IMG/VR virus record: IMGVR_UViG_3300033990_000324
Strand: one strand, 5' to 3'
Source: a virus
DNA length: 29,274 bases
The position numbers and the translations under genes are program-made. Below the pieces are notes generated by a model that worked only from the letters and a program-made list of their open reading frames with translations, was not told the DNA's origin and did not search any database. Of this stretch, positions 7,419-29,131 are shown one piece after another; the stretch's first letter is position 1, and every line of letters starts with the position of its first letter.

Positions 7419-10400
7419 CTATCTCCTGTTCAAGACGAATATGAGGACGCCGGCAGATATCCACATGAAGCCGATGCCAGCAGCCCCCAACGTCAGCGCG
7501 CCTATGAAATTCATGGCCGTCATTCCTGCGGCTACGAGGGCTATGCTGACCGTCGGGTTCCTCGTGACGAACATGAAGAACAGCATCAGTATGGCGAGCA
7601 GCGCGAGGAACACCCCATCAGCACCGAACGCCGTCGGCCTGCTGCCGAAGCTGCCCTGCACCAGCGTGTACCAGCCGTTGCGCACGAATGCCTTGAACTG
7701 ATAGGTATAATACGTGACGTTCACGTCTTTCGCCGTGCAGGTGCTGCTCCCGGACGCCGTCATTAGGTATTTCTGGCATACTAAGTTGGTTGTCGCGTTG
7801 TACGTGTTGTTCTCCACCGACAGGCTCGTGTTGTACTGCGTGCCGTTCAGCGACAGGAACGAGCACGACACGGTCATGGAATTCGATGGCGCCGCGCTCG
7901 TCGAGCACGAATACTGGAAGTTCTTCAATACCGACTGTATCAGGTTGACTGAGAAGTTGCCCACGGGTATCACGAACGGGCACGCGGTGCTGGAGCATGG
8001 CGCCGCTACCATGTAGTTCGTGAGCGCCAGCAGTGCCCCAGTAGTCGTGTTGTACGCGCCCCACTTGTACGTCGCCTGGTTCTGCAAATATGTGTACGTG
8101 CCGCTGCCAGGCTGCGTGTGGAACTCATCGACGAGCAGCGTGCTATTGGTGTTCGCGTCGAAGAGCAGTTCCTGCACCAACGCCCCCATATACTGCGCGC
8201 TGCTCACGTTCTCGACCGCTACCTCATACAGTATAGGGTCCGTCATGTTGTATATATAAAGTTTCAGGTCTGTCACCGTGCTCGACGTCAGCAGGTTCTG
8301 CAGGTAGTAGTTCGCCTTCGTCGGTGCAGTGACCGCAGAATACTGGAAGCTGCCGCCCGTCCTGAACTGCGCCCACGACGGGTACAGGCACGTCATGTAG
8401 TTGTTCGCCGTGGCCGTGGACGACAGGCCGGCGTCCGTGCCGACTATCGTGTTGCTGCTGTAGAGCTGATTCTTCACCGTGAAGCTGCCTGTGAACAGCA
8501 CGTTGGACGGCCATGCCGTCGTCGGGCTGGTGGCGTTCCAGAAAGTCCATGAAATCGCGTTGGCAGAACCTGCGACGTTGCAGTTGACGACGCTCGGCAG
8601 GTAGGTGCCGAACGTGCCCGTGCTGTTGCGCCATACGGTTACGCCATTGTACGCGAGCGATAGCGGCACCTTGTACGATACCGTCACGGGGCTACCAACC
8701 GTCGGCATCGACAGCGCATAGTTCGAGTTGATGAAACTGTAGAGTTTCGCATAGTAGTGGAACGTCGATGCCACATAGAAGCTGACCGTCTGGTTGCCCA
8801 CGCCCACATCGGCGCTGTTGGCCGTCGCTGTATCGAGGCTCTTGAGGTTGCTGACGTTTAGGTATATCGTCTCGTTCGAGCCCTCTATAATGTTCGCGGC
8901 CGACGCGCTCACCGACGGTATGAAGTTCCATAGCTCGGACTGCACCAGCGTGTTGGCCACGAAGTTCCCTGGTATCGTCGGTATGTCGACGGTCGCGTTG
9001 AACGTATACGCTGTGTCGTTGTTCTGCTGCAGCGGCACAGGGTACGTGTAGTTGTACCATGCGGCTACGTTGGGCGTGGCAGCGATCGCATTATACGCCG
9101 CGTTGTTCGCGTCCAGTGTCACCTTCGTCGCGTCAGGGCTGACGTTGAGCTCGTAGTCTATCTTCTGCGTCGTGGTCTCGTACGCAGTCGCAGGTATCTG
9201 CGGCACAGATACCACGATGGCCGCCACAACGTCCAGGTATTTCGTCGCTGATGTCGCAGCGGTGGTGTCCTTGACCGTTATGTTGTATGTGCCGATGCCG
9301 TAGTCGCTCTCGCTGTATTTGACGCTGCCGGTTCCCGACGCGACCTCGACGCCGTTCACGTACATGGTCAGGCTGTCGGTCGACAATGCGGTCGCGGTGA
9401 ACGTCGCCGTGTCGCCGTAGTTAACAGGGCTCGGCGACACCGACAAGACCAAGCCGGCAGTAGTCAGCGCGCCGAACGTCACTGTCGGCATGACATTATC
9501 CGGCGGCGCAGTCCTGCTCCTGAACCAGTATATATCTATCGGAGCAGCGCCTGCATTCTCTTCCCAGCCGAACGTCAGCGCGTTAGGCACCGTGCTCGAA
9601 TTCCCGTGCAGGTAATCGACCAGTTTGCCGACGTTGGCTGCGGTGCAACCGCCGCTGTTGCCGCAGGGATAGAACGCGCCTGCCGCCACGCTGTTCGGGA
9701 ACAGGTACACGCCATAGACCGTGAAACTCGACGTAGGGGCGGATACTGTATCGTTCGCTATATTATTAGAGGAATTCAGCGAGAACATCCCGCTGCCGAA
9801 CCCCCACCCAGTTATGTGGTCGAGGATGCCCGAAGTCGCCAATCCGCCGACGAGTCCCTTGGTGAAATTCTGTGATGACGCCAACGTCTCTATTATCGCG
9901 TTGGGAGCCTCGCCGTACGCCGAATAATAATATGATGACCTGCAACTGCCAGGAGGCTCGATGCTTAACCCATTATCGACCTGGAAAACGGGCGCACTGC
10001 AGCTTAGATTGGTCCACCCAGTCGGCAACGTGTTGGCCGCGAGCGTGCCGGCGAAATCCTGGTACGCAGGGAACACGTTCGCGCCGTTGTCGTACTGCGC
10101 GTACGACGTCTGCGGGCAGCCCGATGAGCAGTACAGCTGCGGAGCCACGCCCACCGTCTTGCCGTTGAACAGGTCAGTTCCCGTTGACATGAAGTCGATT
10201 GTCAGGACATCCGCAGCGGTCGAGGAAGCGGCTATGCTGGGGTTGAGCTTGACCCAATATATTATGTTCGCGCTGCTCGACAGCGACGCGGCCTTTGTCT
10301 CGTTGAGCGCGTTGCCTTCGAGCCACGTATCAGCTACGGTGCCGTTGTTGCTGTAGGAGAACTCTATGTTCTGCAGGTTCGATGCCTCGTAGCTCGTGTA

Positions 10401-10604
10401 TGCGAGCGCGTTGAACGGTATCATCACCTGCAGGTAGTTGCCAGTCGCGGTCGTCTGCGTGTTCTGCAGCGAGACGTTGACGTAATAGAGGGTGTTGGCC
10501 GGCAAGGAGAACGCCCCAGCTACGTGCATGAGCATGGCTGCAGCGACGGCGAAAAACAGCAAATATCGGCCTGATAGCCTACCCAAACGAGACATTTTAC
10601 CCAT
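7419..10604 (-). CDS. Large adhesin/terminal fibre, SSV VP4-like architecture, DUF2341-like N-terminal domain
   Basis: Start moved to ATG 10604; class I signal peptide; YYVNVSLQNTQTTAT..SNLQNIEFSY..TWLEG..IIYWVKL..YDNGANVF pattern recalled from DUF2341-like archaeal surface proteins; about 28 N-x-S/T sequons by manual count; three C-terminal TM helices. Confidence 0.75.
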   Translation of the reverse strand: MGKMSRLGRLSGRYLLFFAVAAAMLMHVAGAFSLPANTLYYVNVSLQNTQTTATGNYLQVMIPFNALAYTSYEASNLQNIEFSYSNNGTVADTWLEGNALNETKAASLSSSANIIYWVKLNPSIAASSTAADVLTIDFMSTGTDLFNGKTVGVAPQLYCSSGCPQTSYAQYDNGANVFPAYQDFAGTLAANTLPTGWTNLSCSAPVFQVDNGLSIEPPGSCRSSYYYSAYGEAPNAIIETLASSQNFTKGLVGGLATSGILDHITGWGFGSGMFSLNSSNNIANDTVSAPTSSFTVYGVYLFPNSVAAGAFYPCGNSGGCTAANVGKLVDYLHGNSSTVPNALTFGWEENAGAAPIDIYWFRSRTAPPDNVMPTVTFGALTTAGLVLSVSPSPVNYGDTATFTATALSTDSLTMYVNGVEVASGTGSVKYSESDYGIGTYNITVKDTTAATSATKYLDVVAAIVVSVPQIPATAYETTTQKIDYELNVSPDATKVTLDANNAAYNAIAATPNVAAWYNYTYPVPLQQNNDTAYTFNATVDIPTIPGNFVANTLVQSELWNFIPSVSASAANIIEGSNETIYLNVSNLKSLDTATANSADVGVGNQTVSFYVASTFHYYAKLYSFINSNYALSMPTVGSPVTVSYKVPLSLAYNGVTVWRNSTGTFGTYLPSVVNCNVAGSANAISWTFWNATSPTTAWPSNVLFTGSFTVKNQLYSSNTIVGTDAGLSSTATANNYMTCLYPSWAQFRTGGSFQYSAVTAPTKANYYLQNLLTSSTVTDLKLYIYNMTDPILYEVAVENVSSAQYMGALVQELLFDANTNSTLLVDEFHTQPGSGTYTYLQNQATYKWGAYNTTTGALLALTNYMVAAPCSSTACPFVIPVGNFSVNLIQSVLKNFQYSCSTSAAPSNSMTVSCSFLSLNGTQYNTSLSVENNTYNATTNLVCQKYLMTASGSSTCTAKDVNVTYYTYQFKAFVRNGWYTLVQGSFGSRPTAFGADGVFLALLAILMLFFMFVTRNPTVSIALVAAGMTAMNFIGALTLGAAGIGFMWISAGVLIFVLNRR

Positions 10605-10605
10605 T

Positions 10606-10842
10606 TCATTCGATGCTTCCGCGACGCCTCTTATACGGATGCCCGTGCTGCTCCCTATATACCTTGCCGACCACTGCGCCATACACGTAGTCGCCCCTGC
10701 TCTTGCCGTAGCGGTGCTCGAATTCCCTGCGCTCCCTGTCCTTCGCGCCGTGCTTGTACAGGTGCGCACCGCCGCTGCTCGACCTATGCCGCCATTCTGC
10801 GTAGCTTTCCGCGCGCGTATGCGGCATCTTCCTGTGTCCCAT
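10606..10842 (-). CDS. Small basic His/Arg-rich protein, candidate virion DNA-binding protein (VP2-like role)
   Basis: 78 aa rich in R, H and K, fitting tightly between two structural genes; function inferred from charge and position. Confidence 0.55.
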   Translation of the reverse strand: MGHRKMPHTRAESYAEWRHRSSSGGAHLYKHGAKDRERREFEHRYGKSRGDYVYGAVVGKVYREQHGHPYKRRRGSIE

Positions 10843-10850
10843 TGTCTCAC

Positions 10851-11318
10851 CTATTTTATGAACGTGACGGCTATTATTATGACCGACAGCACGAGCGTAG
10901 CTGCGGGCAGGTACTGGAACAGCTGCATTATGACCGGATACTGCGCAGCCACGGTGCCGAACGACGACGCGCCGATTATGCTATAGAACGCGTCATGCAG
11001 TATGAACGAGAAGAACACTTCTATGGGCAGTATCACGAGCGCTGGGACTATGAACACCGGACTGCTGTCAGCGAACGCCGCAGCCACTGCTGACGCGACT
11101 GCTCCGATCAGGAACAGTATCACCACCGCGTTGTTCAATATGCTTATCGACGTGCCTGCGTTCTTGTACGCGAGTTGGCCCTGCGGCGTGGCGTTGAACA
11201 GCTGACGTGACGTGGGGTTGCTGCCGAACGCCGTCCAGATGCTGTCCACTGCGAACAGCGCCACTATGACGATGAACAGCATGGCGAGGAGGAATATGAT
11301 GTCGACCTGCCCCTTCAT
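10851..11318 (-). CDS. Pilin-like hydrophobic virion protein with class III signal peptide (MKG/Q)
   Basis: MKGQVDIIFLLAMLFIVIVALFAV fits the archaeal [KR]G/Q prepilin motif; three further hydrophobic helices; sequon NAT. Confidence 0.65.
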   Translation of the reverse strand: MKGQVDIIFLLAMLFIVIVALFAVDSIWTAFGSNPTSRQLFNATPQGQLAYKNAGTSISILNNAVVILFLIGAVASAVAAAFADSSPVFIVPALVILPIEVFFSFILHDAFYSIIGASSFGTVAAQYPVIMQLFQYLPAATLVLSVIIIAVTFIK

Positions 11319-14300
11319 CTCCTCCGCCTCTTCGTTATCGGCCTGCTCAGCCCTATCTGCGTCCGCGTCCCCGATATGCCCAGCATCGCATGCGTCAGGT
11401 CGGGTATGTAGCCGAAGTGCGGGCGATGGTGCACCGCTGCCTTGTGCTGCTGCTGCGCCGGCTTCTTCTTGCCGCCGGGAGCTATCACCGAGTAGTCCAC
11501 GGACGGCACAGCGGGCGGGAACGGGAATATGGCCGGCGGCGGGGGCGCTGGCACGGTCTGCTGCTTTTGGTTCTGTGGCGATGTCGTCTTCTGGGTCGTG
11601 GTGGTCTTCTGCGTCGTGTTGTTGGTCGGCGTGGTCAGCGGCGTCGCTATCGGTATATCGATGTTTATGTATCGCGGCACGGCGCGCTGAGTGGTGGGTG
11701 TCTTGTTGGTCGTCCTGAATCCGCCGCCGGTGAATACGCCGACGTCTACCAGCCCGGGCACAAGCCTGTTGGTCGCGTTGTTCTTCGTAGTCGTATCGAA
11801 TATGCCGACGGTCGTCGTTCCGGTACCTGTGTTAGTGCGGTCTATCGTCCTGCTTATCACGGCGCCGCTCTGGTACCTGTTTATGCCCGCGAGCAATGGG
11901 TCTATGCCCTGCAGCGTGAACGACGACACTGTCTGCGGCGCGAACAATGCCACTGGGATTGTCGGGTTCGCCTCGACGCTCAGCGTGGTCGGCAGCGAAG
12001 GGACTATCTTCGCAGTAGCCATTGCCGTCGATGTCTTCGTCTCTGTCACCTGCGACTCTGCACCAGTTGATAAAACTGGTTCTGGCGATGCCGAACCTGT
12101 CGTTGTAGCCGTCGTGGTTGGCTCCATGTTGGACCATGGACTGTATTGCTTCGGAGGTTTCGGTGCGGGCGGAGTCGGTTCCTCTTCGGGACCGGTTCCC
12201 AAGTCCACGCCGATTTTCGTCGCTGCGGTATTGAGGTCCGCCACCTCGTAATATGTCGTCGGTATCGTGAACAAGCTGTATCGCACATCAAGCAGCTTGC
12301 CGTTGTTGTATCTCTCGGTTATCACGTTCTTGTATACGTCGCCGGAGTATTCCTTTCCTATACCAGCAGAATCTGGTTCTGTGACTGGATTGCCGTAAAA
12401 CGCCGTGTTCGACAGCGCGTCGACCAGCGAGGCGCCCCTTACGACGGGGTAGTTCGCGCCAGCGAAACCCGTACCAGCGTCTGTTTCGCGCGCGATGACC
12501 AGCGCCGAGTTGACAGGCAGCGTGCCGGTGTCTATGGTTACCGCCTTCGTATCTTCGCCGGTGAAGAAGCGCGTTATCGGATTGCGCTGCACTATCAGGT
12601 CTGTGCGGTATTCTGCAGTTCCCGCAGCAGTCTGCGTAATTCCTTCCTCCGCCGTCCCAGCCGGCACGGTGCCAGCGAACTCTATAGTCAAGCCCAATAT
12701 GCGCTTCACCGGTATGCCGTATACCGACCTGACGCCGTTCGGCACCGAGAGGTCTGCTGTAGCCTTGCCGACGAAGCCGATGTTGCTGCCCGCGCCCTCG
12801 TATTCGTAATAGAGGTTAGGGAGCAACCTGTCGGCGAGCGAGGCGGAACCTGACACACGCGCGGTTATCGTGCTGAGCACGCCGTAAGCCGCCCCTTCCT
12901 GGTCGACTGCTGGATTGAGCGAATAGCGTATCGTAGGACCGCTGAAATCGACCGCGTACTTGGGCGTGGCTACGAAATCCTGGGTTCCTGCAGCTACTGT
13001 GACGTATGTTCCCTGCTCGACGTTAGGTAACATCGCAAGCGCCTGCGTCGGCGTGCGCTGCGTTATGTACGCTATGTTCGATGTCTCACCGGTCGGCTCT
13101 GATTCGTACGCTATCGTCTGCGATGTGGGTTTGACCCTTATGTTCGACGCCTGCTCCGGCGTAGGTTCTCCTGCGACGACATCGAGGGCGAATGGGTACA
13201 GCGCCCCGACCGTGCCCTCGACGACTGCCTGTCCAGGCGACGCGCCGGTGGCCAGAGCGGAACCGCCCACCACGCCGAACGATAGCGCATACTTGACCGG
13301 AGAAGCCAGCACCTTTGCTGTGCCGCTCACCAATATCGACGGCGACTTGACTGCAGTTGACAGGGCGGCACCTGCCACGCCGAACTCGCCTGCGTATTCG
13401 GTGCCGAAGGTGAAGCCCTGCGCAAAAGAGCCAGCTTCACCATTTATAAAGCTCGAAAGCGTAAAGTTACTGGGATTCGATGTTGAGTTTGTTTGATTGG
13501 TTTGTAGTGCTGTCGACACTTGTGTTCTTTGGCTTCCTGTTTGTGTATTCGTTGCGCTGGTTCCCGTTAATTGAGTATACGCGGTCACAGCAGCCGACGT
13601 CAAACCATAGAACGCCCCTATCGACAGTCCAAATTTGGCTGTCTGCCCTGCTACGTAAGCTGCGGTCGCTCCTGCAGTAGACGTCGCTGTCAACGCCTTG
13701 GTAGCGATGCCGACCTCTCCGAGCAGGCCGCCTGATGCTGCACCTCCGACGGCGTATGATGTGACAGCCCCGAGCGACGGTGGCTTGCCCGTGGTCAGAT
13801 ACGTCGCCGTGGTGCCTGCTACTGTTGTTATGCCCGCATTTGTGAGCGCAGCGACAGGGAAGTAATATATGCCGGTGAGCGCACCTGCCTGCGTAGCTGC
13901 CGTGAACGCGCCCGACGCGCGCTGGATGGGCGACGACTGTGGCGAGTACAGGTATGCGCCCTGCGTACCCTCGTATATCACCGCGTTGAATAACAGGTTT
14001 GACCGTCCGCCGTAAGCCGTGTTGAACTCGTATTGCTGCACAGCAGCCTGCACCGGCACCTGCCACGGTTGCAGCATCTCAGTCACGCTGCTGGTGGAGT
14101 TCTGCGGTGTCAATCCCGATGCGGTCGCGTTGGGTATCACGTTGCCGTTCGCGTATGCAGTATACGACGTCTTTACGTTGAAGTTGTATGCGGACTGCGG
14201 TGTTGCGAACAGCGCGAACGGCCCGAGCGCATACGTGAGCGCAGCCGTCCCTATTGCCCGCGAGGTAGCAGCTGCACTGCCGCCGGTGACTGTCACGGTC

Positions 14301-16093
14301 GTGACAGGTGTGATGGTTATTGGATTGGTAGTCGTAGCAGACACGAACCGACCGGTAGATGTGCCTGAATAGTCCTGAAGCGCGAAGTACACCTCTCTCG
14401 CCACTTGGTTGGATGGCGGCTTGGATGCGCGTGCGGTGCCTGACGGGATTGCCACTGCCGCACCGCCCGACGCACCACCTGACGACGCGATGGACAGCAT
14501 CGACGACAAGGAGGACGACAACGATGGTGACGATGACGACGACGGCTGCTGCGTGTATGTGTATGAGTAGTTGATCGCACCTGTTGCGCTGTTGACTGTC
14601 TCCGTTATGGAGCCGCCTGCAGGGACGTTGGTGAACCCAAGCGACGCGAGGGTTGCCGACGACACGTCCGCTATTGTCTGCGTGTTGGGTCCCGACGCGA
14701 ACGCGAACGACGACGGAGTGTACTGCACTTTCGGCGACGCGGGGTTGCCGACAAGGGATAGCTGGCCGGATGATACGACCGAGCCGCTGGACGTGGATGC
14801 AGCGGGGTTGACTATCGAGTATGTGGGCTGGCCGCTGCTGCTGAACGTAGTCACGAGCTTGGCTGCAGTAGTCACGCCCGTAAGGGACAGCGGCGACACC
14901 TGCCCTGTCTCGACGATGTTGCCGTTCTGTATCGCGTATGTCGTCGTAGTCCCGTTGGCCGCCTTTATCGTCGTCGTCTGCGCGTTGCCCGCGCCGAAGC
15001 CGGTATAATAGGTGACTTGTCCAAGCGGCGACACCGACACGTTCTGCCCCACCGTGCCGACGCCGGCCACCGATGCCTGCACAGGCTTGAGGAACAGGTT
15101 TGACGACTGGTTGAACACCTGTCCGAGCGAGGGGAACACCACCGACACGTTGCCGTTCGAGGGGTTGTACGTGGTCGGCTTGCTGGGATACGTGTAGCCG
15201 ACCTTATAAGCGTAGTCGCCGTAGTAATATGTTATCGGGACTGTCTTGTATATGGTCGTGCCGCTGAACTTCACGAAGTCGAAGCCCACCGTATTGTTGC
15301 CCGCGTCGTATGCAGTCGATTCAGTCAATGTGCCGAGGTACACCGGATGGCCGATGCCTGCGACGGAGCCGGTGAGCTTCTGGGTTATAGTCGTGCCTTT
15401 GAACGAGTTGTAAGCGAACGTTATCGCGTTGGTCGAGGGGTTGTATGTGGTCGATTCCGTCAGCGAACCGAGATATGTCGACTGGCCGATGCCGGACACA
15501 TTACCGGTAACTTTCTGCGTTATCGTCGTGCCGCTGAATGAATTGTAAGCGAACGTTATCGTGCCGTTCTGCCCGAGCGTGGATACGTCGGTGAGCGTGC
15601 CGAGGTATTGCCCGTTCTCTGTTATCGGCTCGATTATCTTCGCGCCAGTAGCTGTGACCGTGCCGTTTTTTATGGTCGCTATCTCTACGTTCTGGTTCGG
15701 GCCAGAGTTGTAGTACACGCCGAGATTCTCTGCTATCTGTTTTGCGGTGAGCGTGCCGCCGGTGAGCGCGTACGTGAACGACTGCGTGCCCTTCTCCGTG
15801 GTCGTGCCCTGCGTCTGGTTGACCGGCAGCGTGAACGTGCGGTTGCTGACTATCGACGATGGGTAGTACTTGCCGAAGCGGTTGACGTATAGGACGGTTA
15901 TCGGGCCCGTGGGCGTGGATACCTGTCTCGTCAGCGTGGCTGGGGGCGGTCCCTGCGAGGTCTGCGGCTGTATCGGCGACAGCGCGGCTGCGGCGGGCCC
16001 TGCCGGCGCAGGTATGAACGTGTCGCTGCTTATGGTGTTCGGATTGCTCGTGAACCTCGAAGGTATCCCTGCGCGCGTCACCGGTCGTGCCAT
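11315..16093 (-). CDS. Giant Thr/Ser/Gly-rich virion protein, 1592 aa (fibre or pilot/ejection-like)
   Basis: Uninterrupted ORF with N-terminal beta repeats, a poly-Ser linker, a central Ala/Gly hydrophobic region, a Pro/Thr-rich tail and a basic end PITKRRRR. Confidence 0.8.
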   Translation of the reverse strand: MARPVTRAGIPSRFTSNPNTISSDTFIPAPAGPAAAALSPIQPQTSQGPPPATLTRQVSTPTGPITVLYVNRFGKYYPSSIVSNRTFTLPVNQTQGTTTEKGTQSFTYALTGGTLTAKQIAENLGVYYNSGPNQNVEIATIKNGTVTATGAKIIEPITENGQYLGTLTDVSTLGQNGTITFAYNSFSGTTITQKVTGNVSGIGQSTYLGSLTESTTYNPSTNAITFAYNSFKGTTITQKLTGSVAGIGHPVYLGTLTESTAYDAGNNTVGFDFVKFSGTTIYKTVPITYYYGDYAYKVGYTYPSKPTTYNPSNGNVSVVFPSLGQVFNQSSNLFLKPVQASVAGVGTVGQNVSVSPLGQVTYYTGFGAGNAQTTTIKAANGTTTTYAIQNGNIVETGQVSPLSLTGVTTAAKLVTTFSSSGQPTYSIVNPAASTSSGSVVSSGQLSLVGNPASPKVQYTPSSFAFASGPNTQTIADVSSATLASLGFTNVPAGGSITETVNSATGAINYSYTYTQQPSSSSSPSLSSSLSSMLSIASSGGASGGAAVAIPSGTARASKPPSNQVAREVYFALQDYSGTSTGRFVSATTTNPITITPVTTVTVTGGSAAATSRAIGTAALTYALGPFALFATPQSAYNFNVKTSYTAYANGNVIPNATASGLTPQNSTSSVTEMLQPWQVPVQAAVQQYEFNTAYGGRSNLLFNAVIYEGTQGAYLYSPQSSPIQRASGAFTAATQAGALTGIYYFPVAALTNAGITTVAGTTATYLTTGKPPSLGAVTSYAVGGAASGGLLGEVGIATKALTATSTAGATAAYVAGQTAKFGLSIGAFYGLTSAAVTAYTQLTGTSATNTQTGSQRTQVSTALQTNQTNSTSNPSNFTLSSFINGEAGSFAQGFTFGTEYAGEFGVAGAALSTAVKSPSILVSGTAKVLASPVKYALSFGVVGGSALATGASPGQAVVEGTVGALYPFALDVVAGEPTPEQASNIRVKPTSQTIAYESEPTGETSNIAYITQRTPTQALAMLPNVEQGTYVTVAAGTQDFVATPKYAVDFSGPTIRYSLNPAVDQEGAAYGVLSTITARVSGSASLADRLLPNLYYEYEGAGSNIGFVGKATADLSVPNGVRSVYGIPVKRILGLTIEFAGTVPAGTAEEGITQTAAGTAEYRTDLIVQRNPITRFFTGEDTKAVTIDTGTLPVNSALVIARETDAGTGFAGANYPVVRGASLVDALSNTAFYGNPVTEPDSAGIGKEYSGDVYKNVITERYNNGKLLDVRYSLFTIPTTYYEVADLNTAATKIGVDLGTGPEEEPTPPAPKPPKQYSPWSNMEPTTTATTTGSASPEPVLSTGAESQVTETKTSTAMATAKIVPSLPTTLSVEANPTIPVALFAPQTVSSFTLQGIDPLLAGINRYQSGAVISRTIDRTNTGTGTTTVGIFDTTTKNNATNRLVPGLVDVGVFTGGGFRTTNKTPTTQRAVPRYINIDIPIATPLTTPTNNTTQKTTTTQKTTSPQNQKQQTVPAPPPPAIFPFPPAVPSVDYSVIAPGGKKKPAQQQHKAAVHHRPHFGYIPDLTHAMLGISGTRTQIGLSRPITKRRRR
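15237..15610 (-). repeat. Three in-frame repeats of about 44-45 aa in the giant protein
   Basis: YLG[TS]LT[DE]..T[IV].F.[YF].[SK]F.GTTI recurs at about 132-135 nt spacing. Confidence 0.85.
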
Positions 16094-16094
16094 G

Positions 16095-16322
16095 TCACCG
16101 CCTCTTCTTTATCGTTGCGCCCATGAAGAGCGGCAGCCCCTCGCCGATGGTCTGCGCGCGTGGCAGGTCGCTCACCCTGATTATCGGGGTGACCTGCGCT
16201 ATCTCGTGAGTGTTGCACAGCGAGGAGCGCAGCCTGTGGGCCTCGTGGTTCGACGCGGCTACATGGGTGTCCTTGATTATGCCTGCGGGAGTGCGCCTGA
16301 ATACGGAGAACGCGTAACGCAT
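16095..16322 (-). CDS. Small basic hypothetical protein
   Basis: 75 aa; the stop is immediately followed by the giant-protein ATG. Confidence 0.6.
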   Translation of the reverse strand: MRYAFSVFRRTPAGIIKDTHVAASNHEAHRLRSSLCNTHEIAQVTPIIRVSDLPRAQTIGEGLPLFMGATIKKRR

Positions 16323-16383: not shown

Positions 16384-16707
16384 TCAGAACCTCTCTCCTT
16401 CGCCCCTACCCCTGAATGCGAAGGCCAACAGCACTATCCCGATTAGTATCGCTGCAACGATGACGAGGGCTATGAGCGGCAGGTATGACATTATGGTGTT
16501 CACACCCCTGAGGCCGTAGCCCGTCGCGTTGTACGCGATGCTGTTCGGTGTTATGCTGCTGCTGCTCTGGAAGTTCTGCAGTATCAGTGCGCCGACCGCA
16601 CCGACTATGGCGATCAGGACGAACGCCACGACCGCTGGCAGCAGGTCTTCCAACCCTGCGGCGACCCTTCTCTTCTGCAGCTGCTTCTGCAGCTGTATCT
16701 GCTTCAT
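16384..16707 (-). CDS. Major capsid protein, spindle-shaped virus type (two hydrophobic helices, basic propeptide)
   Basis: Start moved to ATG 16707 (AGTGATAGG upstream, own TATA box); MKQIQLQKQLQKRRVAAG-LEDLLPAVVAFVLIAIVGAVGALIL-loop with NAT-IMSYLPLIALVIVAAILIGIVLLAF; same architecture as SSV1 VP1 and the His1 MCP. Confidence 0.8.
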   Translation of the reverse strand: MKQIQLQKQLQKRRVAAGLEDLLPAVVAFVLIAIVGAVGALILQNFQSSSSITPNSIAYNATGYGLRGVNTIMSYLPLIALVIVAAILIGIVLLAFAFRGRGEGERF

Positions 16708-16738
16708 CCTATCACTGCATAGGTCGTAGTCCGCAGCC

Positions 16739-16744
16739 TTTAAA
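16739..16744 (-). promoter_or_regulatory. TATA box of the capsid operon
   Basis: TTTAAA preceded by A-rich GAAAAAATCGCAAAGC on the - strand, about 32 nt upstream of the MCP ATG. Confidence 0.6.
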
Positions 16745-16792
16745 TGCTTTGCGATTTTTTCGATTGTCGTGCCGATTACGCAAAAACACTGG

Positions 16793-17245
16793 TCATGCCA
16801 GCGCGAGCAGCAACAACGACGACAGCAGCAACGATGCAGCGTAATACGCGAGGGCTGGGAACTTCGACGGATAATCCCTTTGCCGGTGCAGGGCATGCGC
16901 ATCCACTGCAGCAGCTACCGACACCACGAACTGCATCAGCACCAGCCCCACTATCCCGGGTATCGGCGCGGTCAGCAGCACCAGCAATATCGCCGCGCGG
17001 TCGGCAGGCGCGTACAGCTTGCGCAGCACCGGCAGCGCGACGGCGAACACCGCGCCGCCCACCACGACGGACAGCAGCGTGATTGCGGGAGACAGCACCA
17101 GCAGCGCCACGAGGACGGCAGACATGATGGACAGGGACAGCAGCAGGATTGAGGTCGAGACCGACAGGTGCTTCCAGTCGTCGACCGCGCACGGCAGCAG
17201 CGCGGCGACGTCGAGCAGCGATACGATTATGTATGTCGTTACCAT
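16793..17245 (-). CDS. Putative prepilin/class III signal peptidase (A24, FlaK/PibD-like GxGD aspartic protease)
   Basis: Multi-TM; Asp23 at the end of TM1 in AVDDWKHLSV (cf. xxxDLKxRxV); Asp82 in YAPADRAAILL (cf. GGAD/GGGD); spacing 59 aa versus FlaK D18-D79; C-terminal FPALAYYAASLLL resembles the PFxPxxxxG tail. Confidence 0.65.
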   Translation of the reverse strand: MVTTYIIVSLLDVAALLPCAVDDWKHLSVSTSILLLSLSIMSAVLVALLVLSPAITLLSVVVGGAVFAVALPVLRKLYAPADRAAILLVLLTAPIPGIVGLVLMQFVVSVAAAVDAHALHRQRDYPSKFPALAYYAASLLLSSLLLLALA

Positions 17246-17246
17246 C

Positions 17247-17384
17247 TCAACGCCTGCGTGCCGCGCGGCGCTGCATGCGTTCGCGCACAGTACCCCGATA
17301 ATGCGCGTGGCACGACGTACACAGACCTACAGTACCGTCGGTGTAGACCGCACACTTGCCGCAGATGCAGCAGCGCGTCACCAT
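17247..17384 (-). CDS. Small zinc-finger protein, 45 aa (not in the ORF track)
   Basis: MVTRCCICGKCAVYTDGTVGLCTSCHAHYRGTVRERMQRRAARRR with a CxxC..CxxC pattern. Confidence 0.6.
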   Translation of the reverse strand: MVTRCCICGKCAVYTDGTVGLCTSCHAHYRGTVRERMQRRAARRR

Positions 17385-17524
17385 AGGACACCACCGCCCA
17401 ATCCCAGTATCACAAGGAATACCACCGCATCGGCGACCAGTATCAATGCGGTCAGCTCCATCGCGGTCGGCGCCGGCTTCGTTTCTGCGAACGGTTCGTA
17501 TATCTCTTTTGTTTCGTCGGTCAT
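17378..17524 (-). CDS. Small C-terminally anchored membrane protein, 48 aa
   Basis: MTDETKEIYEPFAETKPAPTAMELTALILVADAVVFLVILGLGGGVLW; ATGA overlap with the upstream gene. Confidence 0.6.
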   Translation of the reverse strand: MTDETKEIYEPFAETKPAPTAMELTALILVADAVVFLVILGLGGGVLW

Positions 17525-19188
17525 GTTATCATCGTGAGGTTGACATGGTATATTGTTATGCCGTTCTGCGAGTACACCTGCGTGATGCCGCGCATGTCGG
17601 TGTTGCCGTCGATTCCAGTGAGCGCTGCTATGTTGGTGTTCGCGGTTGGCGGCGGCGAGCAGGAACCCGATAAGCTGTCGGCTGCGTCGGGTTGCGTGCG
17701 CCAAGATGGGGGCACGACTATATAATCGATATGCATCGTACGCAGCAGCGTGAGATTGCCTGCGGCGGAAAACAGGAACCGCGTCAGGTTGGCAACCCTC
17801 GCGTAGCTCGTCGAGTTGGAAAAGTTGACGTAGATGCTGCGGTCCGACCAGTATCTGAGGTATGGTCCTGTGTTGATGCCTGTCAGCACCGTCGAGTTCG
17901 TTGGCGAGTTGTTGGCGAGCCACAGCGACGCGGCCTCGAACTGTACGGTCGCATAGTCGGGTCGCGGCATGGTCGGCAGCATCAGCACGTCGGTAGCTGC
18001 GACCACGATGACGCCGGCGACCATGACGGCGCGCAGGTATTTCGGCGCGTATCCATATCCTGCTGCAGCTATCGCCGACAGGGGCAGGTACGCGAACACG
18101 AGCCATCGCGTATCGGCCGCAATCAGCGGCAGGGACACGAGCACCATCACGCCGAGCGCGAGCAGCGTCCATGACCGAGAACCTGTACCGGCACGATGGC
18201 GGAACAGCACGACGATGGTCGGCAGCGAGAACATGGCGAACCCGACCTCGGCGAGCAGCAGCCATGACGGATTGCCGCTGGACATGAACGACTGGTACAG
18301 GAACGTATAGCCGTCGTAGTAGTCGAATGTGGCGAGGCCGGCGGCGGCCGCGACCCATTGGGACGGGGAGTATGTCCATGCGTTTATCTGGCACAGCAGC
18401 GGGTTTGCGAGATTCACTGGGGTCGGCAGGAACTGCGAAGCGTAAGCCGCGAACAGCTGCACCGGTCCGGTCGAGGCGTAGTATAGCTGCATGGGCGTGA
18501 CGACCAACGAGAAGAATAACCATGCGACGAACACTACGGCGGACATCACTGCGAGGGATTTGGATGCACTGTGCAACACCCATGCCAACGCGAGCGAGAC
18601 CACTACTGCAACAGACAGCAGCAGCACGAACGGACCGCCCGACCATACCAACGCCCCGAACAGCGCCGACAACGATGCGAGGACAACCCATAACAGTTTA
18701 TGGGTATCGACGAACCGCAACGTGGAGTATGCGAACGCGAACGCGGCCACTGCTGCGAACGTGTCGCCGGTGAAGTTGACGTATGATTCCGCCCATATAG
18801 CTATCTCGCCGACAGCCCAGCATGCGACCGCGAACAGCACGGCGGGCTTCGAGTCTGTGAGGCGGGAGGCGAGCTTATATACCAGCGCGAAGGCGAGCAG
18901 GTCGAAGGCGAGCTTGAGCATCGTTATCGCGCCCTGCAAGCCGAGCCAGCGCGACAGCGGATAGACGGCGAGCAGCAGCCACACCTGCCCCATCTCGCCG
19001 TAGTTCTGCGGCGCGTGCCCAGCTACGGTCTGCTGCAGCGCGGTCAGCGTGGCTATGTTTATGCCGTTGTCGTCGTTGCCGACGAACGGCTGCTGCATGG
19101 ATTGGAACCCGCGCAGCGCGAGGCCAAGCATCAGTATAGACAGTATCGCTACCAGCCACAGGACGCGCACAGCATCACGTTGGTTCAT
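17521..19188 (-). CDS. AglB/STT3-like GT-C glycosyltransferase (oligosaccharyltransferase-like) with degenerate WWDYG
   Basis: Start moved to ATG 19188; about 12 TM segments; EL1 GNDD (cf. AglB GNDP); DTRW (cf. the conserved Arg in RF); C-terminal WLANNSPTNSTVLTGINTGPYLRYWSDR and LRTMHIDYIVV match the STT3 C-terminal domain layout. Confidence 0.7.
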   Translation of the reverse strand: MNQRDAVRVLWLVAILSILMLGLALRGFQSMQQPFVGNDDNGINIATLTALQQTVAGHAPQNYGEMGQVWLLLAVYPLSRWLGLQGAITMLKLAFDLLAFALVYKLASRLTDSKPAVLFAVACWAVGEIAIWAESYVNFTGDTFAAVAAFAFAYSTLRFVDTHKLLWVVLASLSALFGALVWSGGPFVLLLSVAVVVSLALAWVLHSASKSLAVMSAVVFVAWLFFSLVVTPMQLYYASTGPVQLFAAYASQFLPTPVNLANPLLCQINAWTYSPSQWVAAAAGLATFDYYDGYTFLYQSFMSSGNPSWLLLAEVGFAMFSLPTIVVLFRHRAGTGSRSWTLLALGVMVLVSLPLIAADTRWLVFAYLPLSAIAAAGYGYAPKYLRAVMVAGVIVVAATDVLMLPTMPRPDYATVQFEAASLWLANNSPTNSTVLTGINTGPYLRYWSDRSIYVNFSNSTSYARVANLTRFLFSAAGNLTLLRTMHIDYIVVPPSWRTQPDAADSLSGSCSPPPTANTNIAALTGIDGNTDMRGITQVYSQNGITIYHVNLTMIT

Positions 19189-20397: not shown

Positions 20398-20787
20398 TCA
20401 CCGACGGTAGTACGCGTATCCGCTCGCCTTGAGCCTCGACAGCACGGACTTCTCCGCGACTGGGCCGAGCTCGTGGAGGAAGCTCAGCAGACGCATGTAT
20501 TCTTCTGTCGTGAGGTCGCCCTTCGCCCTGTTGCATGATTTGTGGCACAGCACGATGTTGCTCCACCCAGCGTAGCCGCCGCGCGAGAGCGGCGTCGCGT
20601 GGTCTATGCTGATGTCCTTGATACCCATCACAGTCCCACAATATGCGCATTTGCCGTTCGACGCGTCGATGCGACATGTGAGGATGAACTCTATTTCCGC
20701 GACGGACTCGTAGAAGCCGAGATGTGCGAATTTCTGCTGCGTCAGCACCGCGCGGCGGTGCAGGGTCATGTCCGGTCTCTTCGTCAT
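20398..20787 (-). CDS. HNH endonuclease
   Basis: KCAYCG..SIDHATPLSRGG..NIVLCHKSCNRAKG. Confidence 0.92.
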   Translation of the reverse strand: MTKRPDMTLHRRAVLTQQKFAHLGFYESVAEIEFILTCRIDASNGKCAYCGTVMGIKDISIDHATPLSRGGYAGWSNIVLCHKSCNRAKGDLTTEEYMRLLSFLHELGPVAEKSVLSRLKASGYAYYRR

Positions 20788-20789
20788 GT

Positions 20790-21017
20790 TCACACCCCGC
20801 TCTTCGTGCCTGCCCCGTTGACCTGTTCTATGCTCCCCTCGTGCATGACGTAGTGGTCACAGAGCCTGCAATGATAATACTCGTATCCGGCTGCGGAGAC
20901 GCCCATGCCCCGTTCCTGGCATGCGCAGGCGGCGCAGTCTATCTCTATCGCCTTCGACGCTATCGCCTTGCACTGCGCGCATATCTGCCTGACGAACACG
21001 AAACATTTATTGCACAT
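20790..21017 (-). CDS. Cys-rich zinc-binding protein
   Basis: Start moved to ATG 21017 (GAGGCGAG SD); several CxxC pairs (CNKC, CAQC, CAAC, CRLC). Confidence 0.6.
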   Translation of the reverse strand: MCNKCFVFVRQICAQCKAIASKAIEIDCAACACQERGMGVSAAGYEYYHCRLCDHYVMHEGSIEQVNGAGTKSGV

Positions 21018-21169: not shown

Positions 21170-24100
21170 TCACTCCTCCCCTCCGACCACCCGCCAGATG
21201 CCCGGTCTGGGTTGGTAGATGTCCCCTCCGCGCTGCAGCTCCTCCAATGCCCATCCGATCTCATAGGTAGTCATGCCCTCAAGCGCGCTATTCAGCCGCG
21301 AGTCCGGGTTCTCCGGGTCGAGATGTATGCCCAATTCGGTGGCCAGGCGTATGGCTGCCAGGGTCTTCTCTACCATCTGCTCCTTGCTCAATCCTTCGTC
21401 TTTCGCTTGAATTTGCGTTATTTGAGCGTTGTCTTGTACTTTAGGTGTGAGTTGGGTTTGAGGCGCTGATTGCTGAATTGGGGCTGTTTTGGGGTCGTTT
21501 GGAGGTTGCGGAGGGAATGGGACAGCGGCTTGCGGCCCTGTGGCTGGGTCCATATCGGCAGATTGCGACTCTGGTTTTGGAGGCAGGTCGGCTGCGGCGC
21601 TGCCCGACTCGGCAACTGTCGAATGTTCGACAGACGAAGGTTCGACATGCGGTAAATCTGCGCCAGTTGCAGGTGCACCCAAAAGTTCATTTTTTTGGTT
21701 ATAAGACAAGTCGCACCGCGCGGACTGATTTTCTAAAAGATTGTTAGAAGATTGGGATTGGGGTGGTAGGTTGGTAGGGATTGGTTGGTTTTTTATACTA
21801 CCGCTATATTCTTTATTTTCTAATTTTCTCTCTGACGGGAGTATGAAAAGCTTGCCATATCCTACCAACCTACCATTGTCTATACCCTCCTTTCCGCCAA
21901 TTTGGGCATTTTGTTGCGTTTCATCCTTTTCATTTTTTTGGGCTTGTTGCTGTCCCTGCGCGCTGGGTTCGATTGCCGCGAACCTGTACTTCGCCCGGTT
22001 CGCATGCAGTTTTGGCTTGTCCTCCTCCATGCGGATACCATCCATTATGCGCCCAGCGTACTTACCTAACAAAATCGCGAACCTGTGTTTCGCGCGACTC
22101 TCATCCTTCTGCCACCCCATATACGCGAATATGCCGAAGATTGGGCTGTTCGGATCCGTTATCTCGCTTATGATGTCGCCCTTGTTTATCCACTTACCGC
22201 TCCAGCGTTCCGCCATGAACGCGTATAACTGCCGCATGTCATTCGTTTCGATGTCGCCCCCAACCGCATTTATCACATCGTTCTGCTGCGGTACCCCTAT
22301 GCCTGCGCATTCCAGTATGCCGCCGACCACGGCCATCCATTCGGGGAACGAAGCGAACGGCTTGCTGCATCTCGGGCAGCCGGCCTCGACCCAATGGCGT
22401 ATCAGCGTATACAGCGCGCTCAATATGTCCGACCTGTGCGCCTTCGCCCAGCCGTGCAGGTCTGGATTGTGGAACGTCCTCGCATTCGGGTCCTCGATGT
22501 CGAGGAACAGGTTGACGAAGATGCTGCGCTGCGCCAGGTCGGGCGTGTAGCTCAGGCCGATGTTTGCGGACAGGCTGAGCTCGAGCACGTTCGGGAATTC
22601 GAGCGACACGTTGCTGCCCAACTGCCTGTCGGAGTACACCTCCTTCGTCGCGAGCGCCTCCAATTCCGCGCTATTAAGGTGTCCCTTGTTGTTGCTGCTG
22701 TGCAATATGCGCCGGCCGGAACTGAGGACGCCTATGAGCTTCTTCCTGAACTCGTCATCCGTCTGCGCATGCCCCTTGCTCACCGGCGGGTCCTCTATCG
22801 CCTCGCCTTGGTAAGTTATCCCGACGATGCCGGCGCAGTAGTCCTTGCCCGCGCGTTCCCTGTTGGCGAGGTAGATGAATATGGGCGTGCGTATAGTCTC
22901 CCTCGAATATAGGCCACGGCACAGCGGGGTCAGCAGGTGCGCGAGCGCATTGACCTTGTCCTGTGCCCCCTTGAACGCGAACTCGGCGTAAACCGAATCG
23001 AGCAGCATCTTCGCGTCGTCGAGGCTCATCTCGGTTATCGTCGGCGCGTCGAAGGGCAGGAACGACATGAACTTGGGATCGTAGCCGCGCCTGGGGAATT
23101 CGAGCCTGCCGCCGTTCAGCTTCGGCAGCGGCACGGTCAGCAGGCGCTTCATTATCGGCAGCTTCGTCAGGAACTGGTCGACGCTCTTGAGCAGCACGCG
23201 CGCGGTGCCGGCAGGCAGGCTCTTCGCCCGCGTCTCGTCGTCCGCTCCCATGGCCACGAGCTGCAGATCCCTGTCGAGGAACGTGACGAGCGCCTCGCCG
23301 TCGACCGGCACGAGCCCGAGGACCTCGTGGCCGTCATCGTCTACCTTCACCATGCTGACGCGCTCGACCTCGTGCATGTCCGGCCGGTAGAAGAGTTCCT
23401 CCCTTCCGCCGTAATACTTGGCCACGTCTTCGGCGAACTCGCCGATTGTCCGGCCGGTCCCCGGGAGCAGTATCATAGGGCGTTCGCTGCCGTAGTTCGG
23501 CGCATATCCGTATTTCTGCCGCGCCGCCCCGTACACCTTCCTCCAAAGTTCCTTGTCGCCATATCCCGGTACGGCGTTCTCGCATCCCATGAGGCCCTCT
23601 GCAACGGCTATGTAGCTCAGCGGACCTCCGCCGGAGTTGTGGCGGAAGCAGTGCCACACGTTCCGCTCGGTATTGACGGTGAAGTTCGCGCCGGTGGTCG
23701 AGCCGTGCACAGGATGCGCGCCCTGATATTCACAGTCGCCGATCTTGCGCAATCCCTCAAGGCGAACCACGTCGGCTATCCGTAGCGTGTCCTTCCGCTT
23801 CTCGTCCCTCTCCATCCTCTTCGCTATCTCTTCGTCGCTGAGGCTCTTCTGCCGTATGTAGCCATCGATTGCTGCGTATATGCGTTCTGCATCGACGTGC
23901 ATTATCGGCGCATCGTTTTCGACCTTATAACGCTCGCCGTTTGGATGCAACGACCCTGGGCCGACCACGCAGCCGTTGCACTTTAAGTCACCCCTGTGCA
24001 CGCCGTCACGCTCGAGTGGGATTGTCGTCATGGCTGTATCGCAGAGGTAATAGAAGTGATGGCCGCCGCTGCCGCTACGCACAGTGAACGTGCCGCCGAG

Positions 24101-24340
24101 CCCCTTCTCGACTACGGCATCGGCCAGCTCCTTCGTGTCGGCGTCGATGACGACAATGCCGCCGATGCCGCACATGACGCCGTAATTGCTGTCTGCGTCA
24201 AGCGCCGACTGCAACTTTGCGTCGTCGAAAGCGTAGTTCGCCGTCGTAGTCCAGTCCTTCTCGTGTCCGCTCTTCGTGCCCTTCGTCATGATCGCGAAGC
24301 GGAACGCCGCGACCCTGAGCTGTTGCGGGATTTCCGTCAT
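21170..24340 (-). CDS. Replicase: bifunctional primase-polymerase (AEP prim-pol) + zinc-binding domain + P-loop helicase-like domain
   Basis: NYGVMCG..IVVIDAD and TVRSGSGGHHFYY (prim-pol); GAHPVHGSTTGANF..WHCFRH (CHC2-like Zn domain); NRERAGKD Walker A variant, DRQLG and DLAQR; start at ATG 24340. Confidence 0.88.
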   Translation of the reverse strand: MTEIPQQLRVAAFRFAIMTKGTKSGHEKDWTTTANYAFDDAKLQSALDADSNYGVMCGIGGIVVIDADTKELADAVVEKGLGGTFTVRSGSGGHHFYYLCDTAMTTIPLERDGVHRGDLKCNGCVVGPGSLHPNGERYKVENDAPIMHVDAERIYAAIDGYIRQKSLSDEEIAKRMERDEKRKDTLRIADVVRLEGLRKIGDCEYQGAHPVHGSTTGANFTVNTERNVWHCFRHNSGGGPLSYIAVAEGLMGCENAVPGYGDKELWRKVYGAARQKYGYAPNYGSERPMILLPGTGRTIGEFAEDVAKYYGGREELFYRPDMHEVERVSMVKVDDDGHEVLGLVPVDGEALVTFLDRDLQLVAMGADDETRAKSLPAGTARVLLKSVDQFLTKLPIMKRLLTVPLPKLNGGRLEFPRRGYDPKFMSFLPFDAPTITEMSLDDAKMLLDSVYAEFAFKGAQDKVNALAHLLTPLCRGLYSRETIRTPIFIYLANRERAGKDYCAGIVGITYQGEAIEDPPVSKGHAQTDDEFRKKLIGVLSSGRRILHSSNNKGHLNSAELEALATKEVYSDRQLGSNVSLEFPNVLELSLSANIGLSYTPDLAQRSIFVNLFLDIEDPNARTFHNPDLHGWAKAHRSDILSALYTLIRHWVEAGCPRCSKPFASFPEWMAVVGGILECAGIGVPQQNDVINAVGGDIETNDMRQLYAFMAERWSGKWINKGDIISEITDPNSPIFGIFAYMGWQKDESRAKHRFAILLGKYAGRIMDGIRMEEDKPKLHANRAKYRFAAIEPSAQGQQQAQKNEKDETQQNAQIGGKEGIDNGRLVGYGKLFILPSERKLENKEYSGSIKNQPIPTNLPPQSQSSNNLLENQSARCDLSYNQKNELLGAPATGADLPHVEPSSVEHSTVAESGSAAADLPPKPESQSADMDPATGPQAAVPFPPQPPNDPKTAPIQQSAPQTQLTPKVQDNAQITQIQAKDEGLSKEQMVEKTLAAIRLATELGIHLDPENPDSRLNSALEGMTTYEIGWALEELQRGGDIYQPRPGIWRVVGGEE
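21764..21875. repeat. Perfect 15-bp inverted repeat inside the replicase gene
   Basis: TGGTAGGTTGGTAGG (21764-21778) and CCTACCAACCTACCA (21861-21875), with an 82-bp AT-rich spacer. Confidence 0.9.
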
Positions 24341-24371
24341 GGCGTCGCCCTCGACTCCGCATTGCTGCGGC

Positions 24372-24638
24372 TTATCTTTTCCACTCGCGCACCGGCCCAC
24401 GATTCCTCTTGTCTGTGCTGTCGAGTTCGAGCACGTGATGGCAGTATTCGCACCTGAAGTCGGTCCGATACCTGTTTATGAGCACCTGCGCGAACGCATT
24501 TTTGTCCGGTGGCGCGATTCCCAAGTTGCGGCTGCGCCGCGCCTGGGTCTCATACCGCCTCGCGATTATCGTAGCGAGCCTAAGTCGTTCCCACGCGCCG
24601 ACGCCGGCCAACGCGTCGCGGATAGTTTCTTTACCCAT
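24372..24638 (-). CDS. Zinc-finger protein resembling the N-terminal half of an HNH nuclease (possibly truncated)
   Basis: FRCEYCHHVLEL, then a stop before any SxDH/HNH motif. Confidence 0.5.
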   Translation of the reverse strand: MGKETIRDALAGVGAWERLRLATIIARRYETQARRSRNLGIAPPDKNAFAQVLINRYRTDFRCEYCHHVLELDSTDKRNRGPVREWKR

Positions 24639-29085: not shown

Positions 29086-29131
29086 CGGCCACTGGCAGCG
29101 CGCGGTCCCGCCTTCGCGCTGCCCGTGGCCG
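29086..29131. other. GC-rich stem-loop after the nuclease gene (possible terminator or structured element)
   Basis: CGGCCAC-t-GGCAGCGCG pairs with CGCGCTGCC-c-GTGGCCG: 16 bp, one mismatch, 12-nt loop. Confidence 0.8.

Follow-up and report, generated by a model that had tools for sequence, protein, structure and literature searches.

The viral DNA analysed here, IMG/VR record IMGVR_UViG_3300033990_000324 (29,274 nt; this whole stretch is called the window below), encodes a 555-amino-acid (aa) membrane protein that is, with near certainty, a homologue of the STT3/AglB family of GT-C glycosyltransferases. The gene for this glycosyltransferase (GT) belongs to a membrane-enzyme operon that heads the virion module, upstream of the gene for a candidate coat protein of the spindle-virus type. 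Positions refer to the whole window, and all genes of the locus lie on the minus strand, where the open reading frames (ORFs) follow one another in the order 555, 48, 45, 150, 107, 75, 1592, 155 and 1143 aa. Based on the results below, we suggest, at a probability of roughly one in three, that in this operon the STT3 paralogue glycosylates its substrates outside the N-x-S/T sequon and the 150-aa protein acts as a leader peptidase.

The three core ORFs, which a first-pass annotation of this DNA had picked out, are present on the minus strand at the positions in Table 1, as confirmed by the ORF list and by gene calls on two public contigs of near-identical sequence, L001 (ENA) and L002 (Logan), where the gene callers gave identical calls for all three. 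Compared with these contigs, the 555-aa and 150-aa genes contain few substitutions and have ratios of nonsynonymous to synonymous polymorphism (pN/pS) of 0.24–0.30. Because of the matching gene calls and the low pN/pS, we regard the genes as real.

The assignment of the 555-aa protein is based on family profiles, fold and embedding. As a single query, the protein found no match in Pfam (STT3 included), PHROG or NCBIfam. An exhaustive HMMER search gave 65 homologues, mostly of 22–30% identity, with a match at 2e-25. A profile built from 43 homologues matched human STT3A (E 2e-26) and A. fulgidus AglB (AfAglB, 5e-25) in the PDB, and a profile of the ten nearest homologues matched the C-terminal core of STT3A (E 1.1e-6). 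Among the 43 family members, five reach Pfam STT3 (PF02516) and five reach PMT_2. The AlphaFold 2 (AF2) model is of good quality by its predicted local distance difference test (pLDDT, 81) and predicted template modelling score (pTM, 0.84), and the best PDB matches of this model in Foldseek were STT3A/B, yeast Stt3, DPY19, AglB and PglB (E 2.5e-10 to 3e-5). Among the Atlas structures, residues 1–555 align with STT3 clusters at a TM-score of 0.69–0.74, and a language-model embedding search gave 0.98 to PMT_2/STT3/Dpy19 clusters. As profile, fold and embedding agree, the homology of the GT to STT3/AglB is established, and the AglB/STT3-like identity proposed from the sequence is borne out by the family profile, the AF2 model, Foldseek and the Atlas alignments alike. 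The gene is under purifying selection (pN/pS ~0.3). The protein contains eight sequons, compared with 3.3 expected, and seven of them lie within the C-terminal domain (residues 426–555; 17521–17915, minus strand), which fits an extracytoplasmic domain. No relative of the GT was found by the IMG/VR scan or by tblastn against phage and archaeal-virus records, and word-index searches with the GT or the 150-aa protein returned only near-identical or already-known sequences.

In canonical oligosaccharyltransferases, the WWD motif and a glutamate of external loop 5 (EL5) are the elements by which the N-x-S/T sequon is bound and activated, and the catalytic aspartate of external loop 1 (EL1) is D47 in AfAglB and D56 in PglB. 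In the viral GT, the family "EPD" column corresponds to G37-N-D39-D40 and is aligned by HMMER to G-N-D47 of AfAglB; the local confidence of the model is low at this site. The segment F-T-G141-D142-T-F aligns to the family EWRGE and to the S-Y-D-N-E region of STT3A with one acidic residue kept, and R450 is aligned to the arginine of the STT3 ANRT motif. The glutamate column of the EL5 TIXE/SVSE motif is occupied by Gln267 (C-Q-I-N), in a poorly modelled loop where the alignment is uncertain; glutamine also occupies this column in most of the near-subfamily members shown. WWDYG of STT3A aligns to "egdG" in the subfamily and to G-I-N-T-G (437–441) in the GT, so the earlier remark that WWDYG has been lost was correct. 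The nearest relatives of the GT share these motif losses, and distant family members retain EPD, EWRGE, SExQP and WxDGS. Across ~20–25% identity, E65, G141, W182, G184, G185, P369 and R450 are invariant in the subfamily, together with an acidic residue at position 142. The GT is thus a member of a subfamily of short STT3 paralogues in which the EL1 aspartate (GND) and the G-D/E motif are preserved and WWDYG and the EL5 glutamate are lost. Judged by its motifs, the viral GT is not a canonical N-oligosaccharyltransferase. In addition, external loop 5 contains a F-D-Y-Y-D-G-Y insertion (residues 288–294; 18309–18329, minus strand) present only in this virus and near-identical strains; it resembles WWDYG but sits in the poorly modelled loop.

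Paralogues of this kind also occur in cellular genomes. In the small genomes where relatives of this virus occur, there is a long AglB (open frames of 676–832 aa) with WPDGS or WWDYS, and most of these long AglBs have a TIXE/SVSE-type glutamate motif (TIQE, TVQE or SVAE). The cellular genome G001, which belongs to the host phylum, encodes both a long AglB of canonical type (WPDGS) and a short paralogue without WWD (C1 and C11; L073, L078). On contig L003 (1–3611), the canonical long AglB and the short WWD-less paralogue stand in tandem and are followed by a methyltransferase.

The organization of the operon can be read directly from its start and stop codons. The start of the 48-aa ORF overlaps the stop of the GT gene, the start of the 45-aa zinc-ribbon ORF overlaps the stop of the 48-aa ORF, and the zinc-ribbon stop lies 1 nt ahead of the ATG of the 150-aa ORF. 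Since these codons overlap or abut, the GT, 48-aa, 45-aa and 150-aa ORFs are read as one translationally coupled unit. The zinc-ribbon protein is identical in L001 and L002, where its ORF carries three and one nucleotide changes, respectively, all of them synonymous. An 85-nt gap, which holds a TTTAAA sequence ~34 nt before the coat ATG, separates the 107-aa coat gene from the 150-aa gene.

A comparable organization was found in a second, divergent virus on a 19.7-kb ENA contig (L042, the same contig as L005), so the large enzyme adjoins a spindle-type coat gene in the same order in both, as had been proposed for the window. The order in L042 is a 537-aa STT3-like GT, a 390-aa GT-C-like protein, a 137-aa polytopic protein, the coat protein, fibres, and homologues of the 155-aa and 1143-aa proteins. 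The two GTs share ~22–25% identity, and the L042 coat protein is 30% identical to that of the window. The second GT-C-like gene of L042 (4549–5721; 390 aa, weak PMT_2 match, E 0.003) takes the place of the 48-aa and 45-aa ORFs of the window, and the 137-aa gene starts 7 nt after it. In both viruses, the coat gene is preceded by a gap of 56–85 nt with its own TATA-like box. The 137-aa protein, which has Asp21 and Asp78, is the positional counterpart of the 150-aa protein. The synteny expected for the trio of GT, small membrane protein and coat therefore holds in the closest divergent relative and does not extend to L061, L062, L064 and L065, where neither the GT nor such a small membrane protein was found around the coat homologues.

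The 107-aa coat protein consists of an 18-residue basic leader, a G-L-E-D junction and a two-helix hairpin with one sequon, Y-N60-A-T, in the loop; its sequence and its homologues confirm the two-helix protein with a propeptide-like leader and a single loop sequon that the first-pass annotation had described. Homologues were found in L059 (1.6e-44), L060 (4e-19), L042 (3.5e-10) and L061 (5.5e-8), with weaker ones in L062, L064 and L065. A coat profile search of 401 archaeal genomes of one phylum (0.5–1.4 Mb) gave matches in G325, G141, G118, G160 and G273, and the G325 contig is labelled Candidatus Micrarchaeota. The protein has no Pfam or PHROG capsid match (VP1_VP3 included) and no tblastn match in phage and archaeal-virus records; the IMG/VR scans with the protein and with the coat alignment, as well as a metagenome scan with the alignment, were empty. 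By these searches, the coat protein is a family of its own, all of whose members to date come from Micrarchaeota-type bins and metagenomes. The virus would probably represent a spindle-type lineage new to description, with a Micrarchaeota (DPANN) archaeon as its probable host.

It should be noted that some of the coat matches have unusual surroundings. The homologue in L059/L090 (Candidatus Micrarchaeota metagenome-assembled genome, DAHWXM010000017.1, 6741–7070; 79% aa and 75% nt identity, confined to the coat gene of the window) stands alone amid ordinary cellular genes and a tRNA-Gly gene (7247–7320), and the 7.4-kb contig has no other viral gene. In G118, three identical coat-gene matches (C1, 357046, 383035 and 409024; L062/L063) are spaced by exactly 25,989 bp in a 1.18-Mb contig, and they represent either a tandem triple copy of a related virus of ~26 kb or an assembly artefact of a circular genome. 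On the 100-kb contig L004 (10001–11915), the gene right after a GT homologue encodes a 120-aa hairpin-like membrane protein whose loop sequon, A-Y-N-I-T, is similar to the coat loop; as a coat homologue this protein was not accepted, since the BLAST match was not significant, and it is kept as a hint only.

The coat homologues share a conserved junction, G-[LI]-x-D (in L042, G-D), with a hydrophobic residue after it, and the length of the sequence ahead of this junction varies. L062 (MAGLAD) and L064 (MPGIGD) have no leader at all, with coat starts directly after a stop codon and GGAGG upstream, and other homologues have leaders of up to at least 29 residues. A variable extension ahead of a conserved junction looks like a removable leader, and we infer that the coat leader is cleaved. 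The 155-aa protein is conserved in the virion module as well, and a simple hydropathy count across its homologues gives about four hydrophobic segments. The class III signal pattern, as used in the FlaFind literature, is [KR][GA] followed by a hydrophobic helix; the N-termini of the 155-aa protein (MKG|QV) and of its L042 homologue (MRA|QA) match it. Thus, the protein described in the first-pass annotation as pilin-like is a multi-helix membrane protein and not a pilin, and its fit to a class III signal stands. In the window and L042, where the small membrane-protein gene is present, the coat leaders have 18–29 residues and the 155-aa homologues start with MKG|Q or MRA|Q; in L062 and L064, where it is absent, the coats are leaderless and the 155-aa homologues start with MSNAID or VSNIID, without a basic residue. 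This co-variation of leader and small gene favours a peptidase–substrate relation.

Further features of the 150-aa protein are consistent with such a function. Asp22 and Asp23 end helix 1, and Asp82 follows a basic patch 59 residues later; this spacing and the form of the first motif would correspond to those of FlaK (D18/D79). The context of D23, D-aromatic-basic-x-x-x-V, occurs in both viruses, and the basic loops 1, 3 and 5 fit six helices with the N-terminus outside and both aspartates at the cytoplasmic face. Real A24 enzymes of Micrarchaeota have G-A-A-D or G-x-G-D at a similar spacing (59 residues in L037, for example). By embedding, 18 of the 30 nearest Atlas clusters belong to a set in whose listed cluster 22% of the members carry Peptidase_A24 (score 0.92, 184 shared features). 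Taken together, these data make the 150-aa protein a tentative candidate, at somewhat less than even odds, for a very diverged two-Asp intramembrane leader peptidase (GxGD-like, here A-P-A-D). An LspA-type (A8) signal peptidase was set aside, as the spacing of the aspartates is wrong for it.

Several results, however, weigh against our proposal. The 150-aa protein and its L042 counterpart have no Peptidase_A24 (PF01478) match in Pfam at E ≤ 10, although 37 of 41 host-phylum genomes yield A24 enzymes with this model, and the 150-aa protein has no NCBIfam A24 match at that threshold and no PHROG match. A hidden Markov model (HMM) from 30 Micrarchaeota A24 peptidases scores it no better than shuffled sequences, and hhalign to A24 gave a probability of 1.3%. 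The AF2 model, built from three alignable sequences, reached a pLDDT of 52 and a pTM of 0.29, and Foldseek returned nothing at E ≤ 0.001 with this model, which is too poor to be informative. In the protein, Y-A-P-A-D has alanine in place of the glycine at −3, which is invariant in 16 real A24 enzymes, and the coat leader (VAAG|LE) has alanine at −2 instead of K or R. Translational coupling links the 150-aa gene to the GT genes and not to the coat gene. The global alignment of the 150-aa and 137-aa proteins (z 0.2–0.6) is not above shuffles, and BLAST gave only a local N-terminal match (E 0.23). Demonstrable homology of the two was therefore dropped, and their "conserved" aspartates are counterparts by position and not by proven homology. 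The co-variation described above spans two clades only. Finally, the GT, lacking WWD and the EL5 glutamate, could be inactive or use another acceptor.

The remaining A24 tests were likewise negative or uninformative (phmmer against the PDB) or empty (scan of IMG/VR with the A24 alignment). A further profile search, covering 401 genomes from the phylum of G001, gave seven weak matches; four long open frames among these were read and proved to encode unrelated membrane proteins. With the two small membrane proteins as queries, tblastn gave no match in phage and archaeal-virus records, and the predicted complex of the 150-aa and coat proteins scored 0.00, which gives no verdict. The earlier call of an A24-like protease is thus not upheld by Pfam, NCBIfam, the custom HMM or hhalign, and what speaks for it are the embedding neighbours together with motif and topology. 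The structural check proposed for both enzymes gave a GT-C fold for the 555-aa protein and no A24 match for the poorly modelled 150-aa protein.

We suggest the following sequence of events for the operon. The GT would take a sugar from a lipid-linked donor at the outer face of the membrane and transfer it to virion or other surface proteins, choosing its acceptor without classical N-x-S/T recognition. The 150-aa peptidase would trim the coat leader near AAG|LED and the 155-aa protein at MKG|QVD, in both cases at the cytoplasmic face and before assembly. The loop sequon of the coat protein may be served in another way. Six of seven homologues retain it, in the form NAT, NVT, NIT or NGT, among them homologues from viruses without a viral GT, and the host AglB can therefore account for its glycosylation; more probably, it is the host AglB that serves this sequon.

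It is possible, but doubtful, that the module serves glycosylation only. The 150-aa protein, with the 48-aa and zinc-ribbon proteins, would then be a GT-C accessory, for example a translocator of the lipid-linked sugar or a stabilising subunit, in the manner of GtrA with GtrC in phage gtrABC, and the coat would be trimmed by the host PibD or not at all. The coupled codons from the GT to the 150-aa ORF argue in this direction, as do the 7-nt distance between the GT-C-like and 137-aa genes of L042, with the coat gene beyond a gap and under its own TATA-like box; given this coupling and the separate box, an accessory role fits as well as a protease. The uniformly negative A24 sequence and fold tests agree with it, and the leaderless coat homologues show that the leader is not intrinsic to assembly. 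On the other hand, the 150-aa protein matched no GtrA or flippase family, no Pfam family above noise at E ≤ 10 and nothing in NCBIfam, and its embedding neighbours are A24 and not GtrA. This explanation also leaves unaccounted for why coat leaders occur only where the small gene is present.

We consider it unlikely that the STT3 paralogue modifies host envelope glycoproteins, so as to exclude superinfection or mask receptors during chronic or temperate infection, with its position beside the coat gene being incidental. Such host-surface remodelling would agree with the occurrence of the WWD-less paralogue beside canonical AglB in cellular contexts (G001, L003, L009), which points to a cellular acceptor, with the conservation of the coat sequon where there is no viral GT, with the absence of the GT around four other coat-bearing relatives, and with the analogy to phage seroconversion by GT-C enzymes. 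However, two viruses with such divergent GTs both have the GT directly upstream of the coat gene, the L004 homologue directly precedes a small, hairpin-like, sequon-bearing membrane protein, and the virion proteins are exported and rich in sequons or in Ser/Thr. A reading in which the GT is catalytically dead, serving as a scaffold or as a lectin-like membrane protein, and in which the virion contains the 150-aa protein as a minor structural membrane protein, is very unlikely: WWD and the EL5 glutamate are indeed lost and spindle-type virion modules abound in small hydrophobic proteins without an assigned role, but the subfamily retains its invariant residues and the acidic residue 142 despite its divergence, the EL1 GND aligns to the region of the catalytic D47 of AfAglB, and the pN/pS of the GT gene is ~0.3.

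The first-pass annotation had combined these elements into a self-contained line that cleaves and glycosylates capsid subunits rather than relying on host enzymes. The latter part does not follow from these data: the GT lacks the sequon-reading motifs, the coat sequon is kept in viruses without the GT, and the A24 assignment is unproven. As originally worded, the combined claim is improbable. A Micrarchaeota spindle-type lineage with its own coat-maturation line, in which a diverged two-Asp peptidase would work with a WWD-less STT3 acting off N-x-S/T, for example on Ser/Thr-rich fibres, would be a bolder version of our proposal and is quite improbable as well.

Downstream of the coat gene, the virion module continues with the genes listed in Table 1. 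The 1143-aa protein has 29 sequons, compared with 19.3 expected, a number reached in three of 500 shuffles. The 1592-aa protein has 20, compared with 18.5 ± 3.6 expected by composition. Of the fibres initially described as heavily loaded with sequons, the former is therefore enriched and the latter is at its compositional expectation. A 145-aa membrane protein encoded at 6980–7417 has four sequons, compared with 0.7 expected.

Table 1. Features of the GT–coat locus and of the virion module in the 29,274-nt window.
Feature	Position	Strand	Remarks
555-aa GT-C glycosyltransferase, STT3/AglB paralogue without WWD	17521..19188	-	profile, fold and motifs
48-aa membrane ORF, single helix	17378..17524	-	called on L001 and L002; pN/pS 0.34 on 4 differences
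45-aa zinc-ribbon ORF, CxxC...CxxC	17247..17384	-	bridges the 48-aa and 150-aa ORFs; missed by gene callers
150-aa polytopic membrane protein with D23 and D82, candidate diverged GxGD-type leader peptidase	16793..17245	-	real gene; called on L001 and L002
TTTAAA, TATA-like box	16739..16744	-	~34 nt upstream of the coat ATG; read directly from the sequence, putative promoter
107-aa major capsid protein candidate	16384..16707	-	two hydrophobic helices preceded by a basic leader and G-L-x-D junction; sequon N60 in the loop
75-aa basic ORF between the coat and fibre genes	16095..16322	-	called on L001 and L002
1592-aa fibre-like virion protein rich in Ser/Thr	11315..16093	-	GYSYP/GYTYP motif shared with the L042 fibre proteins
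155-aa multi-helix membrane protein, N-terminus MKG|QVD	10851..11318	-	homologues in L042 (3.6e-14) and L064 (1e-5)
1143-aa sequon-enriched virion protein	7419..10850	-	homologous pieces in L042

The G+C content of the window is ~58%. Its ends (1–151 and 29124–29274) form a 151-nt direct repeat with 96% identity, and owing to this terminal repeat the window probably represents a complete circular genome of ~29.1 kb. An HNH endonuclease is encoded at 20398–20793 (minus strand; Pfam E 6e-10), and a 1076-aa protein at 21170–24400 (minus strand) whose counterpart on the near-identical contig L001 has a Prim-Pol domain; the IMG/VR scan gave no relative of the latter.

In the literature searched, we found no description of a virus-encoded AglB/STT3, of a prepilin-type (A24) peptidase beside an archaeal-virus coat gene, or of a Micrarchaeota spindle virus. 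A pibD knockout of S. islandicus fails to support SSV9 replication, an effect that its authors ascribe to pilins (PMC7217056). The GT part of our findings is solid: the virus-encoded, WWD-less STT3 paralogue is a new variant of a known enzyme kind, a short paralogue without the sequon-reading motifs, and the same paralogue occurs together with a canonical AglB in DPANN genomes. Being tied to a virion module, it offers a concrete handle on non-canonical archaeal protein glycosylation. If the WWD-less STT3 does act off N-x-S/T, a function would be suggested for the short paralogue of cells as well, which would become a candidate archaeal O-glycosylating enzyme. If the 150-aa protein is a leader peptidase, this would bear on the maturation of spindle-virus coats and name an enzyme class for coat processing.

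Among known systems, the coat protein is comparable to SSV1 VP1 and His1 VP21 (Fuselloviridae, Halspiviridae, Thaspiviridae), with which it shares the hydrophobic two-helix hairpin of ~100 aa and a short, glycosylatable loop. The N-terminal extension and the place upstream of large fibre genes are also found in the spindle-virus coats. The SSV1 VP1 precursor, which has an N-terminal extension, is processed, and we know of no protease identified so far as responsible. The coat protein differs from the spindle-virus capsid families in having no Pfam, PHROG or tblastn match.

The 150-aa protein resembles the A24 peptidases (FlaK, PibD, EppA) in its approximately six predicted helices, in an aspartate at the end of helix 1 accompanied by an aromatic and a basic residue, and in a second aspartate ~59 residues on, just before helix 4; moreover, a neighbouring gene product has a short basic leader ending in glycine before a hydrophobic helix. 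It differs from them in having A-P-A-D instead of GxGD and in lacking a sequence or fold match, and, compared with the host-phylum A24 enzymes (~285–320 aa), it is half as large.

The phage gtrABC seroconversion modules (GtrC, a GT-C enzyme, with the small GtrA) likewise link a viral GT-C translationally to a small polytopic membrane protein. In contrast to these, the window has no GtrA or GtrB homologue, its GT is STT3-like and not GtrC-like, and the module lies within the virion gene block. In fold, the viral GT resembles AglB, STT3 and PglB (AfAglB, 3WAJ/5GMY/7E9S; human STT3A, 6S7O), which it follows over its whole length, with both the membrane and the C-terminal domain, with homology at the profile level and with alignable EL1 G-N-D, G-D/E motif and Arg450. 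It is distinguished from these enzymes by a length of only 555 aa, by GINTG in place of WWDYG and Gln267 in place of the EL5 glutamate, and by being encoded by a virus.

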